The notes: generated from the sequence alone by a model not told the origin. Shown: positions 11,722-53,888, counted from the stretch's first letter. The stretch: 64,000 bases of DNA from an uncultured Candidatus Micrarchaeota archaeon (GCA_938083015.1 CALKCX010000003.1:83861-147860), one strand, 5' to 3'. A program made the numbers and translations.

Positions 11722-12669
11722 ATGATGAAAATCTACGTAATAGGTGTAGGGGATGCAGGTCTAAATATAATATCGAGAATGAAATTAAGAAAAATAGATA
11801 ATGTTAAGACCATAGGACTAGGATCTTCTTATAATAGTTTAATGGGAGCATTGGCCGATTATAAGATATTATTACCTACGGATATGACAGGACATGGTGC
11901 TGGAGGGAAACCTGAATTAGGAGAGAGAGCAATGATGATTGCTAAAGACAGAGTATTATCTATAATACAAGATCCTGATTTTATATTCATAGTAGCTGGA
12001 ATGGGAGGTGGTACAGGTACAGGAGCGTCTCCTGCTCTTGCTAAAATGCTATCAGATAAGTTTCCATCTGCAATTATAATAGGTGCAGTAACATATCCAT
12101 TTAGATTTGAGAGAGCTAGATTAAGAATAGCTTCTGCAGGAATTGAAAAATTGATTAAACATGTCCATACTTTGATATTAATAGATAATAATAAACTTTT
12201 AGATTACTATCCGAATATAAGTATTACAAAAGCATTCGAGATGGTGGACAATGTAGTTATAGGTGCAGTAACAGGATTAGTTAGTGTGCTAGTCGAAGAT
12301 TCATTGATAAACGTCGATTTAGCTGATCTTAAAGCGTTGTTATCAAAAGGAGGTCTTGTTATGATAGCTAATGGTTCTGGAAGCGGTGCAGATAGGGTAA
12401 AAAGGGCAATTCAATCAACGATATCGCATCCGTTACTTGATGTAGAATACGAAGGAGCTAAAGGTGCAATAGTCCATCTTACTATATCTCAAGATGTTCA
12501 ACTTGGAGAAGTAATAGAAGTTGCTAATCAACTTACTAAAGGTATAGCTGAAATGGGAGAAGTAAAAATGGGGGTAAGAGTTGACGAGAAGGCAAGAGAA
12601 AGTATAGAGGTGACTTTATTTGTAGTTGGTGTAAAATCTCGGCAATTGTTTGGAGAGCAATATGATTAA
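11722..12669 (+). CDS. ftsZ: FtsZ-family tubulin-like GTPase, divergent paralog
   Basis: 315 aa. GMGGGTGTGASPALA signature, GHGAGGKPELGE and NVDLADLK. The first glycine box has diverged (GVGDAGLN). Confidence 0.8.
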   Translation: MMKIYVIGVGDAGLNIISRMKLRKIDNVKTIGLGSSYNSLMGALADYKILLPTDMTGHGAGGKPELGERAMMIAKDRVLSIIQDPDFIFIVAGMGGGTGTGASPALAKMLSDKFPSAIIIGAVTYPFRFERARLRIASAGIEKLIKHVHTLILIDNNKLLDYYPNISITKAFEMVDNVVIGAVTGLVSVLVEDSLINVDLADLKALLSKGGLVMIANGSGSGADRVKRAIQSTISHPLLDVEYEGAKGAIVHLTISQDVQLGEVIEVANQLTKGIAEMGEVKMGVRVDEKARESIEVTLFVVGVKSRQLFGEQYD

Positions 12670-13852
12670 CATTAGAGAAATAGTTGAAAAATTTCTAGGA
12701 AAACCTATAATAGATAAAATAGCAATAGATGAATTCATATTGGAAATACAGAAAAATATGTTATTATCAGATATACCTCCTAAATCTGTGTTTGAGATAA
12801 CTCAGCGGATAAAACAAAAGATTGCCAATGAGAGATTTCCGACTAAACAGATGATAATTAAAGTTTTATACGAGGAATTTAAAAATACTCTTGGAGAAGA
12901 ATATAAACCTGATCTTAGACCTAGACGTATAATGTTTATAGGTCTCTATGGATCTGGTAAGACTACAACGATAGCTAAACTTTGGAAATACTTTTCAGAT
13001 AGAGGAATATCTACAAGAGTTATATCATTTGATGACGAAAGACCTGCTGCCAAAGATCAGTTAAAGCAATTAGTTAGAGACTATACAGATAAATTCAATC
13101 CAAGAGATAATGAAATGTGGTTAATAGATACTCCTGGAAAATCTGTAGAAGATAGGGCATTTATAGAGAAGTTAAAGGATATAAAAATTAAAACTAAACC
13201 AGATGATGTGTTTTTAGTTATAGGTGCTGATACAGGTAAATATGCAGCAAAACTTGCACAGGGATTTTCAGAATTAGGAATAACCGGGGTGGTAATTACG
13301 AAGATAGATGGATCTGGAAAAGCTGGTGGTGCTTTCATTGCTGTAAAAGAACTAAACGTACGTGTAACGTTTGTTGGATATGGAGAAAAAATAGATGATA
13401 TATCTCCTTTTAATCCAGATGATATATTGTCAAGGATGTTCGGATTTATTAATATTAATCAATTAAAAGAGATTAAAAACGATATAAGTAATCAGAAGTT
13501 TGAATATAATTTTGAAACTTATCTAAAAGAATTGAATAGTCTATCTGGAAAGAGTATTGACGATCTCTTAATAGGAATGGGCATAGAAACCAATTTAGAT
13601 CAATCGATGAAACTTCACGAGATGATGAAGAAATTCAATGCTATGATAAACTCTATGACACCAGAAGAGCGTAGAAATCCAGATTTGTTAAAATCTTCAG
13701 ATTCAAGAATAAAGAGAATAGCTAAAGGTGCAGGACTAAAAGAGATAGAGGTAAGAAGTATGTTGAATAAATTTTTCCAATCTAAGAAAATGTTTGAAAA
13801 GATAAAAAACGATAAAGGAATAATTAATTTATTAAAGAAAATAAAGATTTAG
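12650..13852 (+). CDS. srp54: Signal recognition particle protein SRP54 (compact form)
   Basis: 400 aa. GLYGSGKTTTIAKL, LIDTPGK and TKIDGSGKAGGA, plus the M-domain MTPEERRNPDLL...SRIKRIAKGAG. Confidence 0.85.
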   Translation: MESNMINIREIVEKFLGKPIIDKIAIDEFILEIQKNMLLSDIPPKSVFEITQRIKQKIANERFPTKQMIIKVLYEEFKNTLGEEYKPDLRPRRIMFIGLYGSGKTTTIAKLWKYFSDRGISTRVISFDDERPAAKDQLKQLVRDYTDKFNPRDNEMWLIDTPGKSVEDRAFIEKLKDIKIKTKPDDVFLVIGADTGKYAAKLAQGFSELGITGVVITKIDGSGKAGGAFIAVKELNVRVTFVGYGEKIDDISPFNPDDILSRMFGFININQLKEIKNDISNQKFEYNFETYLKELNSLSGKSIDDLLIGMGIETNLDQSMKLHEMMKKFNAMINSMTPEERRNPDLLKSSDSRIKRIAKGAGLKEIEVRSMLNKFFQSKKMFEKIKNDKGIINLLKKIKI

Positions 13853-14501
13853 GTATATTGAATTTAGAAGTATACATTTTAATTATTTCCTTATCTTTAG
13901 ATAGTAAAGGCCATACGATAGAATCTATATGTAATGGAGGTACTTCTGTAAGCTTAGCTATTTCATTCCATCTATCTATTTTCCATCCTAATCTTTCAGT
14001 TAATCTTTTAATTCTTGAATCATAAGGTATAGGTATTGACATCGGGTATGGTATAAATTTATTTGTAAAAATCCTGGCCCCATAGCCATACATCTTTACA
14101 GCAAAATATATCGTTTTTCCTTGACTTTGTAATCTTTCTTCTAAGACATGTTTTAGCAATTCCATATTTTCATAATATTCTATACCAAATACATCTTCTT
14201 CTAATTTTTTAAGTCTATTTATTTTTATACTATGATACAATCTATTACCTCGACTTTTGATTAGAAAATTTTCTATATTATCTTCGGGGTTTTCTAAAAA
14301 ATATTTAGCAAATTCTGTCCAATAATCCTCTCCTGTACTGGTAAGTTGATAACAAACTATTGCGTTTTTTACTATCAATGTTAAAGCTCTATCTCTATCG
14401 ATATTCTTTAGCATTTTAAGAGCTAAATACTGTCTATCTATATTTTCTTCTATATATCTTGCACCTTCTATACCTATATCTTTGATAAATTGTTCAATCA
14501 T
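13824..14501 (-). CDS. Archaeal 8-oxoguanine DNA glycosylase/lyase (AGOG family)
   Basis: 225 aa. AIVCYQLTSTGEDYWTEFAKYF, KTIYFAVKMYGYG, IPIPYDSRIKRLT and PPLHIDSIVW match remembered Pyrobaculum AGOG blocks. Confidence 0.85.
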   Translation of the reverse strand: MIEQFIKDIGIEGARYIEENIDRQYLALKMLKNIDRDRALTLIVKNAIVCYQLTSTGEDYWTEFAKYFLENPEDNIENFLIKSRGNRLYHSIKINRLKKLEEDVFGIEYYENMELLKHVLEERLQSQGKTIYFAVKMYGYGARIFTNKFIPYPMSIPIPYDSRIKRLTERLGWKIDRWNEIAKLTEVPPLHIDSIVWPLLSKDKEIIKMYTSKFNIPKSLFSLIN

Positions 14502-16027
14502 ATTCTAACGACTATTCTATTATTACCCATATGTATATCCTTAGGTTCGATTATTAATTCTTTTTCATTGATAATCTGTTTAGGACTTAATACACTTAAA
14601 CCCAATGCTTGTAAATTTTCAATTTCAATTATCAAAGTCTTACCTGTACTATTACTTTTAGATATTGTTTTTACACTATCTTCTTTATCAATAATTTCTA
14701 TATCTTGCATTTCTACTATTTGATCGTAAATCTTTAATCTAAATACTCCTGTTTTAATCATTTCAGCTGTTAATCTTCTAAACGATCGATCAATATTACC
14801 TAATTTATAACCAATATGGCTAACACCTAAAGCATAGAGGTTTTCATAGTATTGCTGCATTCCCAATACTATTTGAATTTCAACATATTTATTAGATTTA
14901 AGCTTAAGATTAACATGTATTGCTTTGTAATTTGAATGTTTTACCTTATATTCTACCTTAACTTTATCTCCCCAATCGTATATTTTAGAATCTGGTGAAT
15001 AACCATGGCATTCAACATCTATATCTTGTATATATATTTGATGATTTTCAAGTATACGTTTAATTTTATCGATTACAATACCTATTCTTTTCTCATCATC
15101 TATTACTATTTTTATTCCGTTTATATCTTTTATAGAATGTCTAATACCTTCAATATCGTCTAAATCAAGTCCTTTTCTCGTAATCTTTTTATGTATACTT
15201 GTTAAGCTCTTCACTCTGGCAGATACCATCTCTACACCGTCTAATTGCTTAATAGATTTTTTAATCGTATTTAATATTTTACTATCTATTGATAATTCTG
15301 CTCTAATTCTCTCTAATTTTTCTTTATCTTCTCCAAAATATTCGTTTTCTATAGCTTCGGCCACACCAATATATCCTGTTTCTTTGTAAAATTCCATAAA
15401 AAAAGATGCTGCCCGATCCCATTTATGTTTATCACTATTTTTTCTCATAGAATATTCTATTGCAAACAGTGCTCCTGCAATAGTTAAAGCTGCTTTTATC
15501 TCTTTCATACTCTCTAATATTTCTTTAAAGGTTTTTTCTGACTCAAATTGCAATTCATTTAAACTAATTGTTCTAATTATAAATTCGGAAAACTGATCGA
15601 TGAAATCTTTAGTATCTTTTACTTTCAAAGATGTTACCATCCATATCGTCAACTTAAAGACATCGCTATATTGAGAGTATTCAGAGAATTGGCCATTTAT
15701 CAAATGTTGAATAGATGTATCTAATATAGCGGCCACTCTAGAATATCTATTATCAAAATCCTGCCTATCCCAATCATGGCCTAATAGTTTACGATAAAAA
15801 GTATACCATGTATAGTAAAAATCTATACCTACATCAATTAAATTCCTAACTTGTATTATAGGATCGCCATTACTACGTAATGGCCAATTCATTCCTATTC
15901 TAACATCTTTCCATACATCATTATAGAATTTACTCATTATTGTTTCTAATACTCTATTCTTAACGCTTTTTCTTGTTTCCATCTCATGATTAAAATTATG
16001 ATCGTATCTATACACCTGATGTTTCAT
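14498..16027 (-). CDS. RelA/SpoT-like (alarmone synthetase fold) domain protein with unknown N- and C-terminal regions
   Basis: 509 aa from the ATG at 16027 (the track uses a TTG at 16030). Motifs SARVKSLTSIHKKITRK, DINGIKIVI, NYKAIHVNL and VEIQIV...H.GYK appear in RelA_SpoT order. ATGA overlap with the AGOG gene. Confidence 0.6.
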   Translation of the reverse strand: MKHQVYRYDHNFNHEMETRKSVKNRVLETIMSKFYNDVWKDVRIGMNWPLRSNGDPIIQVRNLIDVGIDFYYTWYTFYRKLLGHDWDRQDFDNRYSRVAAILDTSIQHLINGQFSEYSQYSDVFKLTIWMVTSLKVKDTKDFIDQFSEFIIRTISLNELQFESEKTFKEILESMKEIKAALTIAGALFAIEYSMRKNSDKHKWDRAASFFMEFYKETGYIGVAEAIENEYFGEDKEKLERIRAELSIDSKILNTIKKSIKQLDGVEMVSARVKSLTSIHKKITRKGLDLDDIEGIRHSIKDINGIKIVIDDEKRIGIVIDKIKRILENHQIYIQDIDVECHGYSPDSKIYDWGDKVKVEYKVKHSNYKAIHVNLKLKSNKYVEIQIVLGMQQYYENLYALGVSHIGYKLGNIDRSFRRLTAEMIKTGVFRLKIYDQIVEMQDIEIIDKEDSVKTISKSNSTGKTLIIEIENLQALGLSVLSPKQIINEKELIIEPKDIHMGNNRIVVRI

Positions 16028-16048
16028 CAATATTAATTATTTAATCTA

Positions 16049-16054
16049 TTTAAA
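16049..16054. promoter_or_regulatory. Shared TTTAAA box for a divergent pair
   Basis: Centre is 24.5 nt from the ATG at 16027 (-) and 21.5 nt from the ATG at 16073 (+). Confidence 0.5.
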
Positions 16055-16072
16055 AGTTTTTACCAATAAAAT

Positions 16073-16933
16073 ATGAAGATTGCTATAATAGGAGCTAATT
16101 CCAGATTAGCTAAATATATTCTTGAAGTAGTAAATGGTGATCGATTTTCAAGAGATAATATAGAATATAATAAAGAGAGTATACAAAATAAAATCAAAAA
16201 TTATGATTTGGCGATATTAGCAGTAGGTATAACACAAGGTGATGAGAGAAAATTGTATAATGTTAACGTCAAAACTATTCAAGAGATATTAATGGGGTTA
16301 GATACGAAGAAAGTAGTTTTCCTATCTTCTATAGCTGTTTATGGAAGAAAGAATTATGAGAATTATGATGAAAATGCCCCTGTAATCAATAAACCGACAA
16401 AACATGATTTTTATGGATGGACTAAACTATTAGGAGAAAGATTAATTATGGAATATCAAAAAGATTATCTAATTCTTAGAATAGGTACGGTATTTGGTGA
16501 AATGTATGATGAGTATATAAACATGATTAACATTTGGAAGGCCCAAGGACCTTTCTATTTTGGAGATGGCAATAATAAAATACCTTTTATATACGCTAGA
16601 GATATAGCTAAATTTATATCAAAAAATCTATCTAGTCATGGAATTGTAAACGTGACTTCTCAAGGGATAAGATTTTTAGACGTAATAGAAGATGTACGAA
16701 CTGTGTTTAAAATAGATAAGCAGTCTTTACCATTTTACAAATATATAGCAAATAGATATAAAATACCTACATTGATTGGAAAGATTATAGAATTCTACTA
16801 TCAAAATACAGATAGAATTTACCCTCTTACCTTATCTAGATCTTTTAATATCTCTAAGGCCAAATCTATGGGGCTTGAAATTACGCCTTTTAAGGAAGCT
16901 ATTAAATGTTTTTTATCTAAAATAAATATATGA
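16073..16933 (+). CDS. NAD-dependent epimerase/dehydratase family (extended SDR) protein
   Basis: 286 aa. N-terminal Rossmann-like MKIAIIGANSRLA and the catalytic YGWTK (YxxxK) motif. Confidence 0.7.
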   Translation: MKIAIIGANSRLAKYILEVVNGDRFSRDNIEYNKESIQNKIKNYDLAILAVGITQGDERKLYNVNVKTIQEILMGLDTKKVVFLSSIAVYGRKNYENYDENAPVINKPTKHDFYGWTKLLGERLIMEYQKDYLILRIGTVFGEMYDEYINMINIWKAQGPFYFGDGNNKIPFIYARDIAKFISKNLSSHGIVNVTSQGIRFLDVIEDVRTVFKIDKQSLPFYKYIANRYKIPTLIGKIIEFYYQNTDRIYPLTLSRSFNISKAKSMGLEITPFKEAIKCFLSKINI

Positions 16934-17595
16934 TGGTCAAAATCTTAGGTACGGGAAATGCGTTTACTAAATATAGAAATACGTCTATAATGATAGATGA
17001 TATATTAATAGATTGTGGACCGTCTGTTTATACAATATTATTCAAGATGAATATAATACCTGAAAACGTTTTATTGACCCATGGTCATGGAGATCATATA
17101 TTAGGTTTACCAATGTTAATTCTAAAAGCATATTTTAGTAATTTGCACATGAACATATACGCCCAGCCTTACGTCATTGAGCGAATTAAAGGTATATGGG
17201 AAAATTCTTATCCAGAAGTTAGCTTAGATCTTGTAAGTTTTATACCATTAAAAGATAGCGGTATTGTCAAAGTCAACAATATCGTATTTAATTATGAGAG
17301 TAGAAAACATCTTCATATGACATCTTTGATATATAGAATAGGATATTTTGTTTATGCTACTGATGTAGAGGAAACGGAAAACGATTGGGAATTCTATAAA
17401 GATGCTAAAATTGTAATACATGAATTTGGTAATGGTGCTGGGCATACTCCTATAGAAACAGTATTAAAAATAAAAGATAAGGCAAATATTGATAAGTTAT
17501 ATCTTATACATTATCAAGATGATATAATAAGATTACCTATTATGAATAGAGATGATGTTTTTATTGCTAAACCTGGAGATGTAATAAATATTTAA
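16930..17595 (+). CDS. Metallo-beta-lactamase fold hydrolase
   Basis: 221 aa with the LLTHGHGDHILGLP motif. ATGA overlap with the previous gene. Confidence 0.75.
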   Translation: MMVKILGTGNAFTKYRNTSIMIDDILIDCGPSVYTILFKMNIIPENVLLTHGHGDHILGLPMLILKAYFSNLHMNIYAQPYVIERIKGIWENSYPEVSLDLVSFIPLKDSGIVKVNNIVFNYESRKHLHMTSLIYRIGYFVYATDVEETENDWEFYKDAKIVIHEFGNGAGHTPIETVLKIKDKANIDKLYLIHYQDDIIRLPIMNRDDVFIAKPGDVINI

Positions 17596-18656: not shown

Positions 18657-18755
18657 TGCAGGGGGTGGGATTTGAACCCACGCAGCCACAATGGCACCAG
18701 ATATCTCCGCTCTCTCTTGAGTCTGGCCCGTTTGACCAGGCTCCGGCACCCCTGC
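18657..18755 (-). tRNA. tRNA-Leu(CAA) with a 13-nt intron after position 37
   Basis: Cloverleaf folded by hand. Acceptor GCAGGGG/CCCCTGC, anticodon stem CCAGA/TCTGG, loop CT-CAA-G, intron about 18703-18715, long variable arm, T-arm GTGGG-TTCAAAT-CCCAC, discriminator A, no encoded CCA. Confidence 0.85.
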
Positions 18756-39426: not shown

Positions 39427-42351
<2,925 letters not shown>

Positions 42352-53796: not shown

Positions 53797-53888
53797 GCCG
53801 GGTTGGCGGAGCGGCTACGCAACCGGCTGCAGATAGCTCCAGTTATAGTAGAAACCGGTGTAGGTGGGTTCGACTCCCACACCCGGCT
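53797..53888 (+). tRNA. tRNA-Cys(GCA) with a ~21-nt intron after position 37
   Basis: Hand-folded. Acceptor GCCGGGT/ACCCGGC, anticodon stem ACCGG/CCGGT, loop CT-GCA-G, intron about 53833-53853, T-arm GTGGG-TTCGACT-CCCAC. Discriminator U fits tRNA-Cys identity. No CCA. Confidence 0.75.

Follow-up and report, generated by a model that had tools for sequence, protein, structure and literature searches.

A very divergent RelA/SpoT synthetase-fold protein with two orphan flanking domains in hot-spring Micrarchaeota

In the window studied here, that is, the whole stretch of 64,000 nucleotides analysed from an uncultured Candidatus Micrarchaeota archaeon, one gene encodes a protein genuinely related to the alarmone (ppGpp) synthetases of bacteria but very divergent from them, an enzyme variant rather than a new system. 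Judging from sequence and predicted structure, this 509-aa protein is probably a lineage-specific enzyme of the RelA/SpoT (RSH) superfamily, built of a very divergent SYNTH core of the small alarmone synthetase (SAS) type, apparently catalytically intact, and of two orphan domains on either side of it. The gene and the domains of its product are located as follows.

14498..16027, minus strand: gene of the 509-aa three-domain RSH-type protein, ATG start (from the ORF list)
16030, minus strand: alternative TTG start of the RSH-type gene
14498-14500, minus strand: stop codon of the RSH-type gene
15329..16027, minus strand: N-terminal all-alpha orphan domain, aa 1 to about 233 (AlphaFold2 model, conservation)
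14744..15328, minus strand: SAS-type SYNTH (RelA_SpoT) catalytic domain, aa about 234-428 (PF04607, PDB profile search, Foldseek)
14501..14743, minus strand: C-terminal beta-rich orphan domain, aa about 429-509 (AlphaFold2 model)

The product of this ORF is identical to the 509-aa protein P0001 deposited in NCBI/ENA. The first-pass annotation of the window had given the gene a span of 14498-16030 and a length of 509 aa; the ORF exists, but the end coordinate lies one codon too far, since the ATG at 16027, and not the TTG at 16030, yields 509 aa. The GC content of the gene (0.28) is the same as that of the rest of the window, without any compositional anomaly.

The middle part of the protein is a genuine, very divergent RelA/SpoT synthetase-fold domain. 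The RelA_SpoT profile of Pfam (PF04607), whose curated cut-off is 27 bits, scored 36.4 bits over aa 271-386 (E=6.9e-9). Across the family this match is marginal, the member P0004 reaching 27.6 bits, just above the cut-off, and the member P0003 having no PF04607 match at E<=0.01. When the window protein was used in a profile search of the PDB, the best matches were RelP/YwaC (9.2e-7) and RelQ/YjbM (about 1e-4). The AlphaFold2 model of the 509-aa protein (pLDDT 81.5, pTM 0.81) displays in its SYNTH domain the secondary-structure order b1-a-b2-a-b3-loop-b4-b5-a, and in the Foldseek comparison of the full model with the PDB, RSH synthetases (RelQ, RelP, Rel, RelA and SpoT) accounted for all 50 matches listed, with a probability of 0.97-1.00, E values from 7.5e-5 and TM-scores of 0.4-0.55 normalised to the SAS targets. 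A search of viral folds likewise gave RelA/SpoT or Tas1-like proteins as its best matches. The RelA/SpoT core motifs quoted in the first-pass annotation were all recovered, in the order given, from the sequence and the alignment. The protein falls into the SAS class sensu Atkinson 2011, SYNTH being its sole RSH domain with no HD, TGS or ACT match at E<=10, although with two non-RSH orphan domains fused to SYNTH it is not small. Exceptions to the single-domain organisation of SAS were noted by Atkinson et al., for example actRel fused to DUF429 (PMC3153485).

Four motifs carry the residues expected for catalysis.

15173..15217, minus strand: predicted donor-ATP phosphate-binding motif R271-V-K273-S-L-T-S277-I-H-K-K281-I-T-R284-K285 (alignment to SaRelP and FaRel2)
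15110..15127, minus strand: predicted Mg2+-binding Asp motif D301-I-N-G-I-K306 (alignment to SaRelP and FaRel2)
14915..14929, minus strand: predicted end of the G-loop and acceptor-stacking motif Y367-K-A-I-H371 (alignment to SaRelP and FaRel2)
14804..14881, minus strand: predicted catalytic E383-I-Q385 strand and the helix leading to H404-x-x-Y407-K408 (alignment to SaRelP)

Conservation was read from an alignment of six family members, 28-52% identical to one another, in which R271, K273, S277, K281, K285, D301, G304, Y367, A369, H371, E383, H404, Y407 and K408 are invariant. R271, K273, S277, K281 and R284 align to R78, K80, S84, K88 and R91 of SaRelP, the roles of whose residues (ATP phosphates, Mg2+, stacking, ribose) were taken from PMC5794853, and to the donor-motif residues R64, K66, S70, K74 and R77 of FaRel2 (PMC11782079). 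R284 is replaced by Asn in one subclade, its neighbour K285 being present in all members. D301 corresponds to D107 of SaRelP and D90 of FaRel2, and Y367 to Y151 and Y128, respectively; in FaRel2, substituting either of these two residues kills activity (Kurata et al.). E383 corresponds to E174 of SaRelP, a Mg2+ ligand, and H404 to H190, which contacts the ribose. Of the two Arg that sandwich the donor adenine, the first is R271, whereas the second position (R112 in SaRelP, R269 in RelSeq) is variable, being occupied by K306 here and by K/K/A/R/R/R across the family. The base-contacting Gln (Q385) is retained in 4 members and is His in the 2 others, which form one subclade, and the E-x-Q-x-R-T motif is incomplete in all six, its Arg-Thr being changed to V-L, I-E or V-G.

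The loss of this Arg-Thr, the variable second stacking Arg, the replacement of the Gln by His and a constraint weaker than in the adjacent genes are what a dead pseudo-enzyme would display, if the fold served only to bind nucleotides or to provide a scaffold. Such a protein would not be expected, however, to keep its Mg2+ ligands, its acceptor Tyr and nearly all of its triphosphate ligands invariant at about 30% identity, and in a five-member alignment 10 of the 19 invariant positions of the SYNTH domain are known functional residues, a pattern unusual for a dead enzyme; we consider this explanation quite improbable. From the conserved residues, the 509-aa protein most likely functions as an ATP-dependent pyrophosphokinase, in which R271, K273, S277, K281 and R284 would hold the triphosphate of ATP, D301 and E383 would hold Mg2+, and the acceptor purine would be stacked on Y367 within the long G-loop, so that the beta,gamma-pyrophosphate of ATP would be transferred to the 3'-OH of the acceptor ribose. 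The likeliest acceptor appears to be a purine nucleotide, giving a product of the (p)ppGpp or (pp)pApp type, the 3' adenosine of tRNA being the main alternative. A hint comes from the basic residues around Y367 (K or R at +1 in all six members, Lys or Arg at -3 to -12 in most), which fit an acceptor patch of the alarmone-synthetase type. A positive patch of this kind is reported for alarmone synthetases and is reported to be smaller in the tRNA-targeting FaRel2, and no sequence signature separates the tRNA-modifying from the nucleotide-modifying SAS (Kurata et al.). In the two archaeal model organisms that were assayed, (p)ppGpp was undetected (PMC8646023).

Both flanking domains are confined to this family and presumably regulate or target the enzyme. 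The N-terminal domain is modelled as nine helices (pLDDT about 82) and contains about 30 positions invariant across the six members, with a peak of conservation at aa 178-231 (KAAL.IAG.LFA.EY ... EFYKE.GY.GV); it is as well conserved as the catalytic domain. It had no significant match in Pfam, in PDB sequences or in PDB folds, and zero matches outside the family among 1.84 billion representative proteins. The C-terminal domain, the least conserved of the three, is modelled as 7 strands and 2 short helices (pLDDT 65-86). The description of a three-part protein with unassignable flanks given by the first-pass annotation is therefore borne out. For the C-terminal domain, an assignment to PDZ (PDZ_2, sub-threshold at E=0.011, in one of the six members) or to an eL32-like fold (eL32 C-terminus, sub-threshold at E=0.025, inconsistent between members) was rejected, as was TGS: in none of the six members did these roughly 80 residues match TGS or ACT in Pfam at E<=10.

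The order of a helical part, SYNTH and a small C-terminal domain resembles that of the long RSHs, and the Foldseek alignments to Rel and RelA structures span 330-465 columns, which could suggest a degenerate long RSH whose N-terminal HD hydrolase would have decayed to a pseudo-hydrolase like that of RelA, and whose C-terminal domain would be of a decayed TGS type. These long alignments have, however, E values no better than those restricted to SAS, TM-scores of 0.2-0.38 and an rmsd of 11-16 A. The N-terminal domain modelled alone gave a best E of 0.46 in the PDB fold search, where generic helical bundles came up and the 50 matches listed included no RSH hydrolase; HD_4 was absent from the Pfam results at E<=1 as well as at E<=10. 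The segment LLGHDWDRQD, earlier taken for a weak remnant of the HD motif, does not stand as such, since GHDW is deleted in the orthologue that is 51% identical and the HD dipeptide is unconserved in the other members. The modelled C-terminal domain opens with five consecutive strands, an order judged not to suit the beta-grasp fold of TGS. Descent from a long RSH in this form is thus regarded as very improbable indeed, and the SAS-type core with orphan flanks remains the preferred description.

The distribution of the family is extremely narrow. In an exhaustive HMMER search of 1.84 billion representative proteins, the three-domain architecture was found in only four clusters, and the best matches beyond the family (E about 1e-6) covered the SYNTH domain only. 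The family came to light through this exhaustive search, since word-index searches, run with the protein or with an alignment of 5 members, recovered a single orthologue besides the query protein. A scan of GTDB gave no loci with a 2-sequence alignment and 3 loci with a 5-sequence alignment, and a metagenome scan added one more. P0012, a protein of 358 aa, shares the motif variants DxNGxK, NYxAIH and ELQIMG; its 3-kb contig offered no gene context. All the named records with the architecture are MAGs of streamlined hot-spring Micrarchaeota (Anstonellales-type), and the known family amounts to about 10 sequences, none from a cultured organism.

In all nine loci examined (the window and eight related ones), the position of the gene within one and the same housekeeping block (S12/S7, epimerase, AGOG, SRP54, FtsZ, aIF5B) is unchanged, with AGOG and the NAD-dependent epimerase as its neighbours in every case, and no mobile-element or defence-island neighbour was found at these loci. 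The gene is under purifying selection, with dN/dS values of 0.22-0.29 for the whole gene and under 0.7 for every domain. This dN/dS is nevertheless the highest of the block, the constraint being two- to twenty-fold weaker than in the neighbours, and the RSH protein is 28-51% identical between genomes versus 59-97% for the neighbour proteins. On these comparisons of sequence and gene order, we regard it as a chromosomal gene passed on vertically within a small clade of streamlined, low-GC hot-spring Micrarchaeota of the Anstonellales type.

The weaker constraint also fits a conflict-related role, and the first-pass annotation had framed the protein by reference to toxSAS, CapRel and phage defence. 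According to this explanation, it would be a fusion toxin like the toxSAS or CapRel, held in check by autoinhibition; its SYNTH domain would pyrophosphorylate the 3' CCA of tRNA or drain ATP as (pp)pApp, and one of its two orphan flanks would be an antitoxin and sensor in cis, freed by a virus or host cue. A single multi-domain polypeptide with lineage-specific, fast-evolving flanks, a low identity between genomes and the top dN/dS of the block are in agreement with this, and a tRNA substrate is not excluded by any sequence signature (Kurata et al.). The candidate defence protein PDC-S33 of PADLOC was matched at E=8.8e-5, but the match is weak, spans SYNTH only and concerns one of four members; PADLOC and PHROGs together gave nothing besides it. 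In the same way, a CapRel chain (7ztb) is among the weak PDB sequence matches (E=0.05), but the housekeeping SAS RelP and RelQ outscore it. The fixed slot in a housekeeping block in every genome, away from mobile or defence genes and with a normal GC of 0.28, stands against a toxin. A cognate antitoxin was also absent from the family loci, whether as an adjacent SAH, pZFD, Tis1-like or Panacea-type gene or as a fused pZFD with its YXXY motif, which a direct reading of the C-terminal sequences did not reveal. The defence framing was consequently given up, and we regard a toxin as unlikely.

The region on both sides of the RSH-type gene comprises two further features.

13824..14501, minus strand: AGOG (archaeal 8-oxoguanine DNA glycosylase/lyase) gene (PF09171)
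16047..16055, minus strand: TATA-like box TTTTAAATA between the divergent genes (intergenic distance 45 bp), start at -28/-27 from the ATG

The downstream gene is identified as AGOG by PF09171, for which it reaches 177.2 bits (E=5e-52) where the cut-off is 26.1, and scores 227.5 bits with NCBIfam PRK13280.1-2, just under the equivalog cut-off of 240. The ATG start of AGOG and the stop codon of the RSH gene are interlocked in the ATGA at 14498-14501, as had been described and as is read directly from the sequence. The overlap had been taken as a sign of functional pairing, but it says little on function, since 18 of the 47 pairs of same-strand neighbours in the window (38%) overlap, the shared stretch being exactly 4 nt in 9 cases; in streamlined Anstonellales, the median proportion of overlapping genes is 39% (PMC12892359). 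The pairing and the overlap are kept in every family locus assembled on that side, but the entire block is kept too, and AGOG was not retained as a specific functional partner. More distant AGOG genes lie in oxidative-stress neighbourhoods, where their partner is instead an AsnC-type regulator.

Upstream, the sequence TTTAAA is present at 16049-16054, at -27 from the RSH ATG, and its earlier interpretation as the pair's own promoter is plausible, this distance being typical of the window, where the first genes of transcription units mostly have such boxes at -29 to -27 (the modal position). No TATA-like box was present in the 60 nt upstream of the AGOG ATG. The box at 16047..16055 is thus probably the promoter of a leaderless bicistronic RSH-AGOG transcript. 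A more ambitious reading, speculative and rather unlikely, would be that the clade runs its own alarmone-type signal, with the orphan domains acting as new sensor modules and with expression tied to the repair of oxidative damage by AGOG, as a vertically inherited stringent-like pathway and not a recent import from bacteria.

RSH enzymes are central in bacterial stress physiology and, as toxSAS, in phage defence, while archaeal RSHs are rare and thought to be imported. The Micrarchaeota family is a fixed part of the core genome in a lineage of hyperthermophilic symbionts that is extremely reduced, and it stands out by a core that appears catalytically intact, by having no close bacterial relative and by two domains with no detectable relatives. 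No biochemically characterised archaeal RSH was found in the literature. Characterisation of this one would reveal what use is made of such a pyrophosphokinase in an organism stripped of most metabolic pathways, and could uncover new regulatory domains for the SYNTH fold. With only about 10 sequences known, all from uncultured organisms, its practical importance is limited.

Among the known systems, RelP (YwaC, SAS2) and RelQ (YjbM, SAS1) of Firmicutes are the best matches in sequence and among the best in fold. They have in common with the Micrarchaeota protein the core b1-a-b2-a-b3-G-loop-b4-b5-a and, as predicted from the alignment, the same ATP-phosphate ligands, Mg2+ Asp/Glu pair, stacking Tyr and ribose-contacting His. 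In contrast, they are bacterial, single-domain proteins of about 210-230 aa, whereas the archaeal protein has 509 aa and two orphan domains, and scores 23.7 bits with the RelQ equivalog NF053588 (NCBIfam), far from its cut-off of 320. Relative to RelP and RelQ, it has also lost the Arg-Thr of EXQXRT, has Lys in place of the second adenine-stacking Arg and carries a 5-residue insertion before H-x-x-Y-K, and the G-loop of its family is much longer and of variable length. CapRel(SJ46) and the toxSAS (FaRel2, PhRel, Tas1) likewise fuse SYNTH to a lineage-specific non-catalytic domain; the residues R64, K66, S70, K74, R77, D90, Y128 and E145 of FaRel2 match the catalytic residues of the Micrarchaeota protein, and fast-evolving flanks are found on both sides of the comparison. 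CapRel, however, is regulated by a C-terminal pseudo-Zn-finger with YXXY, a motif missing from the C-terminal domain described here, and the Micrarchaeota protein has instead a large conserved N-terminal helical domain; its gene is vertically inherited in a housekeeping block, without a toxin-antitoxin-like or defence context. The long RSHs (Rel, RelA, SpoT) have a homologous SYNTH domain and a superficially similar order of helical N-terminal part, SYNTH and C-terminal extension, but HD, TGS and ACT/RRM are not detectable by sequence in the Micrarchaeota protein.

The first-pass annotation knew of no precedent in a reduced archaeal genome. An RSH in such an archaeon is not unprecedented, since RelA/SpoT homologues were reported in other DPANN phyla, namely in Diapherotrites, Woesearchaeota, Pacearchaeota and Nanoarchaeota (PMC8407392), and sporadic archaeal SAS named divRel are also reported (PMC3153485); these reports omit the Micrarchaeota and credit transfer from Bacteria (PMC8407392, PMC3153485). 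The DPANN RSHs and divRel are thus, like the present family, RSH-family genes of archaea, including genome-reduced DPANN, but the Micrarchaeota family differs from them in having no close bacterial relative and a unique three-domain architecture, and in these two respects, family and architecture, it appears to be new to the literature.

The assignment of the window protein to the RelA/SpoT family, first made from its core motifs, is real as judged by profile searches and by a predicted fold. The gene (RSH) and the features close to it are the following:

13824..14501, minus strand: AGOG (8-oxoG DNA glycosylase) gene, PF09171 E=5e-52
14498..16030, minus strand: RSH reading frame of the ORF list, from TTG; the next codon, ATG at 16027, gives 509 aa
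16047-16055: TATA-like box TTTTAAATA, inside the 45-bp divergent intergenic region upstream of RSH
16930-17595, plus strand: MBL-fold hydrolase gene, Lactamase_B_2 E=6.6e-13, matching anti-Pycsar Apyc1 weakly (E=0.01)

The 509-aa form is identical to the NCBI/ENA entry P0001. Over aa 271-386 Pfam RelA_SpoT (PF04607) scored 36.4 bits (E=6.9e-9), above its curated cut-off of 27, and since databases already hold this match, an annotation pipeline would flag the protein. When family profiles were compared with solved structures, RelP/YwaC (9.2e-7), S. aureus RelP (1.5e-6) and RelQ/YjbM (about 1e-4) were retrieved, and CapRel was also matched weakly. The AlphaFold2 model, built from a five-sequence family alignment, reached an unexpectedly high confidence (pLDDT 81.5, pTM 0.81), and its aa 265-425 follow the canonical order b1-a-b2-a-b3-G-loop-b4-b5-a. 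All 50 matches listed by Foldseek against the PDB were RSH synthetases (RelQ, RelP and the catalytic regions of Rel/RelA/SpoT); among predicted viral structures, the top matches were RelA/SpoT and Tas1-like proteins, spanning about 200 columns.

By sequence alignment, the predicted catalytic positions also match known synthetase active sites, as the first-pass annotation required. Residue roles were taken from S. aureus RelP (SaRelP, PMC5794853) and FaRel2 (PMC11782079) and transferred via HMMER alignments, and conservation was scored on a six-member alignment, the members being 28-52% identical to the window protein.

Putative active-site residues of the RSH protein
Triphosphate ligands: SaRelP R78, K80, S84, K88 = R271, K273, S277, K281; invariant in six members
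Triphosphate ligand: SaRelP R91 = R284; Asn in one subclade, the neighbouring K285 being invariant
Mg2+ ligands: SaRelP D107, E174 = D301, E383; invariant in six members
Acceptor-stacking Tyr: SaRelP Y151 = Y367; invariant in six members
Ribose-contacting His: SaRelP H190 = H404; invariant in six members

H371, Y407 and K408 are further invariant residues in the six members, and known functional residues make up 10 of the 19 invariant positions of the catalytic (SYNTH) domain in the five-member alignment. Substituting the FaRel2 residues that correspond to D301 and Y367 abolished activity. Three features depart from the canonical site: at the position of the second adenine-stacking Arg (RelP R112, RelSeq R269) the window protein has Lys and the family as a whole K/K/A/R/R/R, none of the six members keeps the Arg-Thr of EXQXRT, and the Gln of that motif is replaced by His in one subclade. 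The G-loop is long and differs in length between family members, and a five-residue insertion before H404 falls where the model has low confidence (aa 399-403).

The N-terminal domain (aa 1-~233) is predicted to form nine helices. Modelled alone (pLDDT 81.8), it gave no significant fold match in the PDB (best E=0.46, to 14-3-3, C3PO and BAR-type bundles), no RSH hydrolase was present among the 50 fold matches listed, and searches of Pfam and PDB sequences returned no match, the best E-values (0.004 and 0.04) belonging to unrelated families that differed by member. The LLGHDWD stretch, earlier proposed as a weak remnant of the HD motif, does not hold up: in the 51%-identical orthologue a deletion removes GHDW (and with it the HD pair), and the other members have unrelated residues there. 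Foldseek also aligned the protein over long stretches to Rel structures with two domains, but the rmsd of these alignments is 11-16 A and their E-values are no better than those of SAS-only matches; they are no sign of a pseudo-HD domain. The domain, with about 30 invariant positions, is as conserved as the catalytic domain, which argues from sequence that it is an integral part of the enzyme; aa 178-231 are the best-conserved stretch of the entire protein.

The C-terminal domain (aa ~429-509), with seven strands and two short helices predicted, is the most variable part, and its matches were all sub-threshold and inconsistent (E=0.011 for PDZ_2, seen in one member of the six, and E=0.025 for the C-terminus of eL32). 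The latter concerns the segment GKTLIIEIENLQALGLSVLSPK (aa ~460-484; 14501-14650, minus strand), which weakly resembles a C-terminal segment of eL32, below significance against PDB sequences, and is absent from the lineage of L010, a related locus.

The proposed coupling to AGOG stands as a physical arrangement. The ATGA shared by the RSH stop and the AGOG start at 14498-14501 is read directly from the sequence, and the two genes overlap by 4-20 nt at every locus with an assembled junction. As evidence for a functional link this arrangement is weak: overlaps are common, a crude ORF-based gene call giving them for 18 of the window's 47 same-strand neighbour pairs (nine by exactly 4 nt) and for 8 of 11 convergent pairs, and the conservation of the pair is inseparable from that of its block, which is syntenic as a whole in every genome. 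At every locus S7, S12, the MBL-fold gene where present and an epimerase gene point one way, RSH and AGOG the other, SRP54 and FtsZ back again, and aIF5B away from them. The AGOG protein itself scored 227.5 bits against the NCBIfam equivalog PRK13280.1-2, slightly below the cut-off of 240. Extreme packing is seen, for example, at 12650-12669, 13824-13852 and 16930-16933, and the convergent genes SRP54 and AGOG share 29 nt at their 3' ends.

The box upstream of RSH lies at -28/-27 relative to the ATG, and first-gene boxes in the window concentrate at -29 to -27, a spacing that implies leaderless mRNAs. AGOG has no TATA-like box in the 60 nt before its start, and co-transcription of RSH and AGOG is plausible from the sequence. 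Gene starts apparently fall into two classes (example upstream regions 17632, 18818, 135 and 52570), most first genes having a TTTAAA-type box at -29 to -27 and a minority (S12, TFB and others) a box near -40 with a GGTG Shine-Dalgarno-like element right before the start codon.

The MBL-fold gene, whose product resembles a nucleotide phosphodiesterase, lies two genes from RSH and shares 4 nt with the epimerase gene. The two nearest orthologous loci, L001 and L002, also have it, their precomputed Apyc1 match being unmarked, but L003, L005, L006 and L010, family loci that are further removed, lack it. Upstream of AGOG genes that are more distant (46-48% identity) stands an AsnC-type regulator gene instead, and peroxiredoxin, rubrerythrin and thioredoxin genes surround them. 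In the archaeal contigs L011 (4573-5732) and L012 (289-1421) the upstream AsnC/Lrp-type HTH regulator gene overlaps AGOG, the pair standing among peroxiredoxin, rubrerythrin-like, desulfoferrodoxin and thioredoxin genes in L011 and near thioredoxin and peroxiredoxin genes in L012, apparently an oxidative-stress setting for 8-oxoG repair.

Within the syntenic block RSH encodes by far the fastest-evolving protein.

Protein identity between the window and related loci
L001: RSH 51%, AGOG 71%, FtsZ 88%, S12 97%
L002: RSH 31%, AGOG 61%, FtsZ 72%, S12 94%
L003, L005, L006, L008: RSH 28-29%, AGOG 59%, FtsZ 72%, S12 94%

Its dN/dS was 0.22-0.29, against 0.005-0.16 for the neighbours in unsaturated comparisons, which indicates purifying selection, and constraint is present in all three domains. 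By these measures RSH is a working gene, but either under weak constraint or adapting rapidly.

Among 1.84 billion representative proteins, searched exhaustively with HMMER, only four clusters have the three-domain architecture (the query's own and those of P0003, P0004 and P0005); all other matches are confined to the SYNTH domain, at E>=1e-6, or comprise several stretches of a very long protein. A few further members came from GTDB genomes, JGI metagenomes and the neighbours of AGOG genes, among them the 497-aa one of L010. All titled family records are MAGs of 'Candidatus Micrarchaeota' or 'Candidatus Anstonellales', the latter placed under the phylum Microcaldota in the NCBI taxonomy. P0012, a 358-aa protein on a 3-kb contig (L009 593-1669), has the unusual motif variants of the family (DLNGVK, NYPAIH and ELQIMG without Arg-Thr) and lacks its flanks; its sequence may represent a distant sister lineage of the family SYNTH domain. 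P0007 (442 aa) and P0010 (431 aa), both from the HMMER search, each have two complete canonical SAS domains in tandem, both stretches being confirmed by Pfam in P0007.

The window is archaeal and includes FtsZ, SRP54, ribosomal proteins S12 and S7, TFB and an isolated LSU rRNA gene:

18657-18755, minus strand: tRNA match, 99 nt, from Rfam, not called by ARAGORN
39443-42335, minus strand: complete archaeal LSU rRNA gene
53797-53888, plus strand: tRNA-Cys, 92 nt, from ARAGORN, not listed by Rfam at gathering score

No SSU or 5S rRNA match occurs within the 64 kb, so that the rRNA genes are unlinked here, and the two tRNAs, being longer than standard, may carry introns. The window, with a GC content of about 29%, about 89% of its bases in crude ORF calls and overlaps between 38% of same-strand neighbours, resembles the description of Redboyarchaeum, a streamlined hyperthermal genus of Anstonellales whose genomes are GC-poor and densely coding, a median of 39% of their genes overlapping (PMC12892359).

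The best-supported reading of the alignments and the model is that the protein would be an active SAS-type ATP-dependent pyrophosphokinase with two family-specific accessory domains. Its acceptor is not assignable from sequence; according to Kurata et al., no signature separates tRNA-modifying from nucleotide-modifying SAS. Alarmone synthetases bear an extensive positive patch beside the stacking Tyr, smaller in the tRNA-targeting FaRel2; in our family a basic residue right after Y367 is kept throughout and several Lys/Arg occupy the preceding 12 residues in most members, by analogy a weak hint of a nucleotide acceptor. A fused toxin of the CapRel type, the comparison first drawn, is a less probable alternative: housekeeping RelP and RelQ match better than CapRel, the YXXY motif of the CapRel/ATfaRel2 pseudo-Zn-finger type was not found in the C-terminal domain, the neighbours include no antitoxin-like gene, and the gene sits in a vertically inherited housekeeping block.

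The SAS-type pyrophosphokinase proposed here can be set beside earlier archaeal reports. Atkinson et al. found archaeal RSHs only sporadically and ascribed them to transfer from bacteria (PMC3153485), Li et al. listed RelA/SpoT as bacterial acquisitions in Diapherotrites, Woesearchaeota, Pacearchaeota and Nanoarchaeota, Micrarchaeota not being listed (PMC8407392), and (p)ppGpp was not detected in Haloferax and Sulfolobus (PMC8646023); in papers on Micrarchaeota and Anstonellales we found no mention of RelA, ppGpp or alarmones. The fold, the chemistry and the presence of RSH genes in DPANN are thus already known. The family is a new variant by the arrangement of its domains, by the absence of close relatives in bacteria, by being fixed in a core syntenic block and by its confinement to one hyperthermal streamlined clade.
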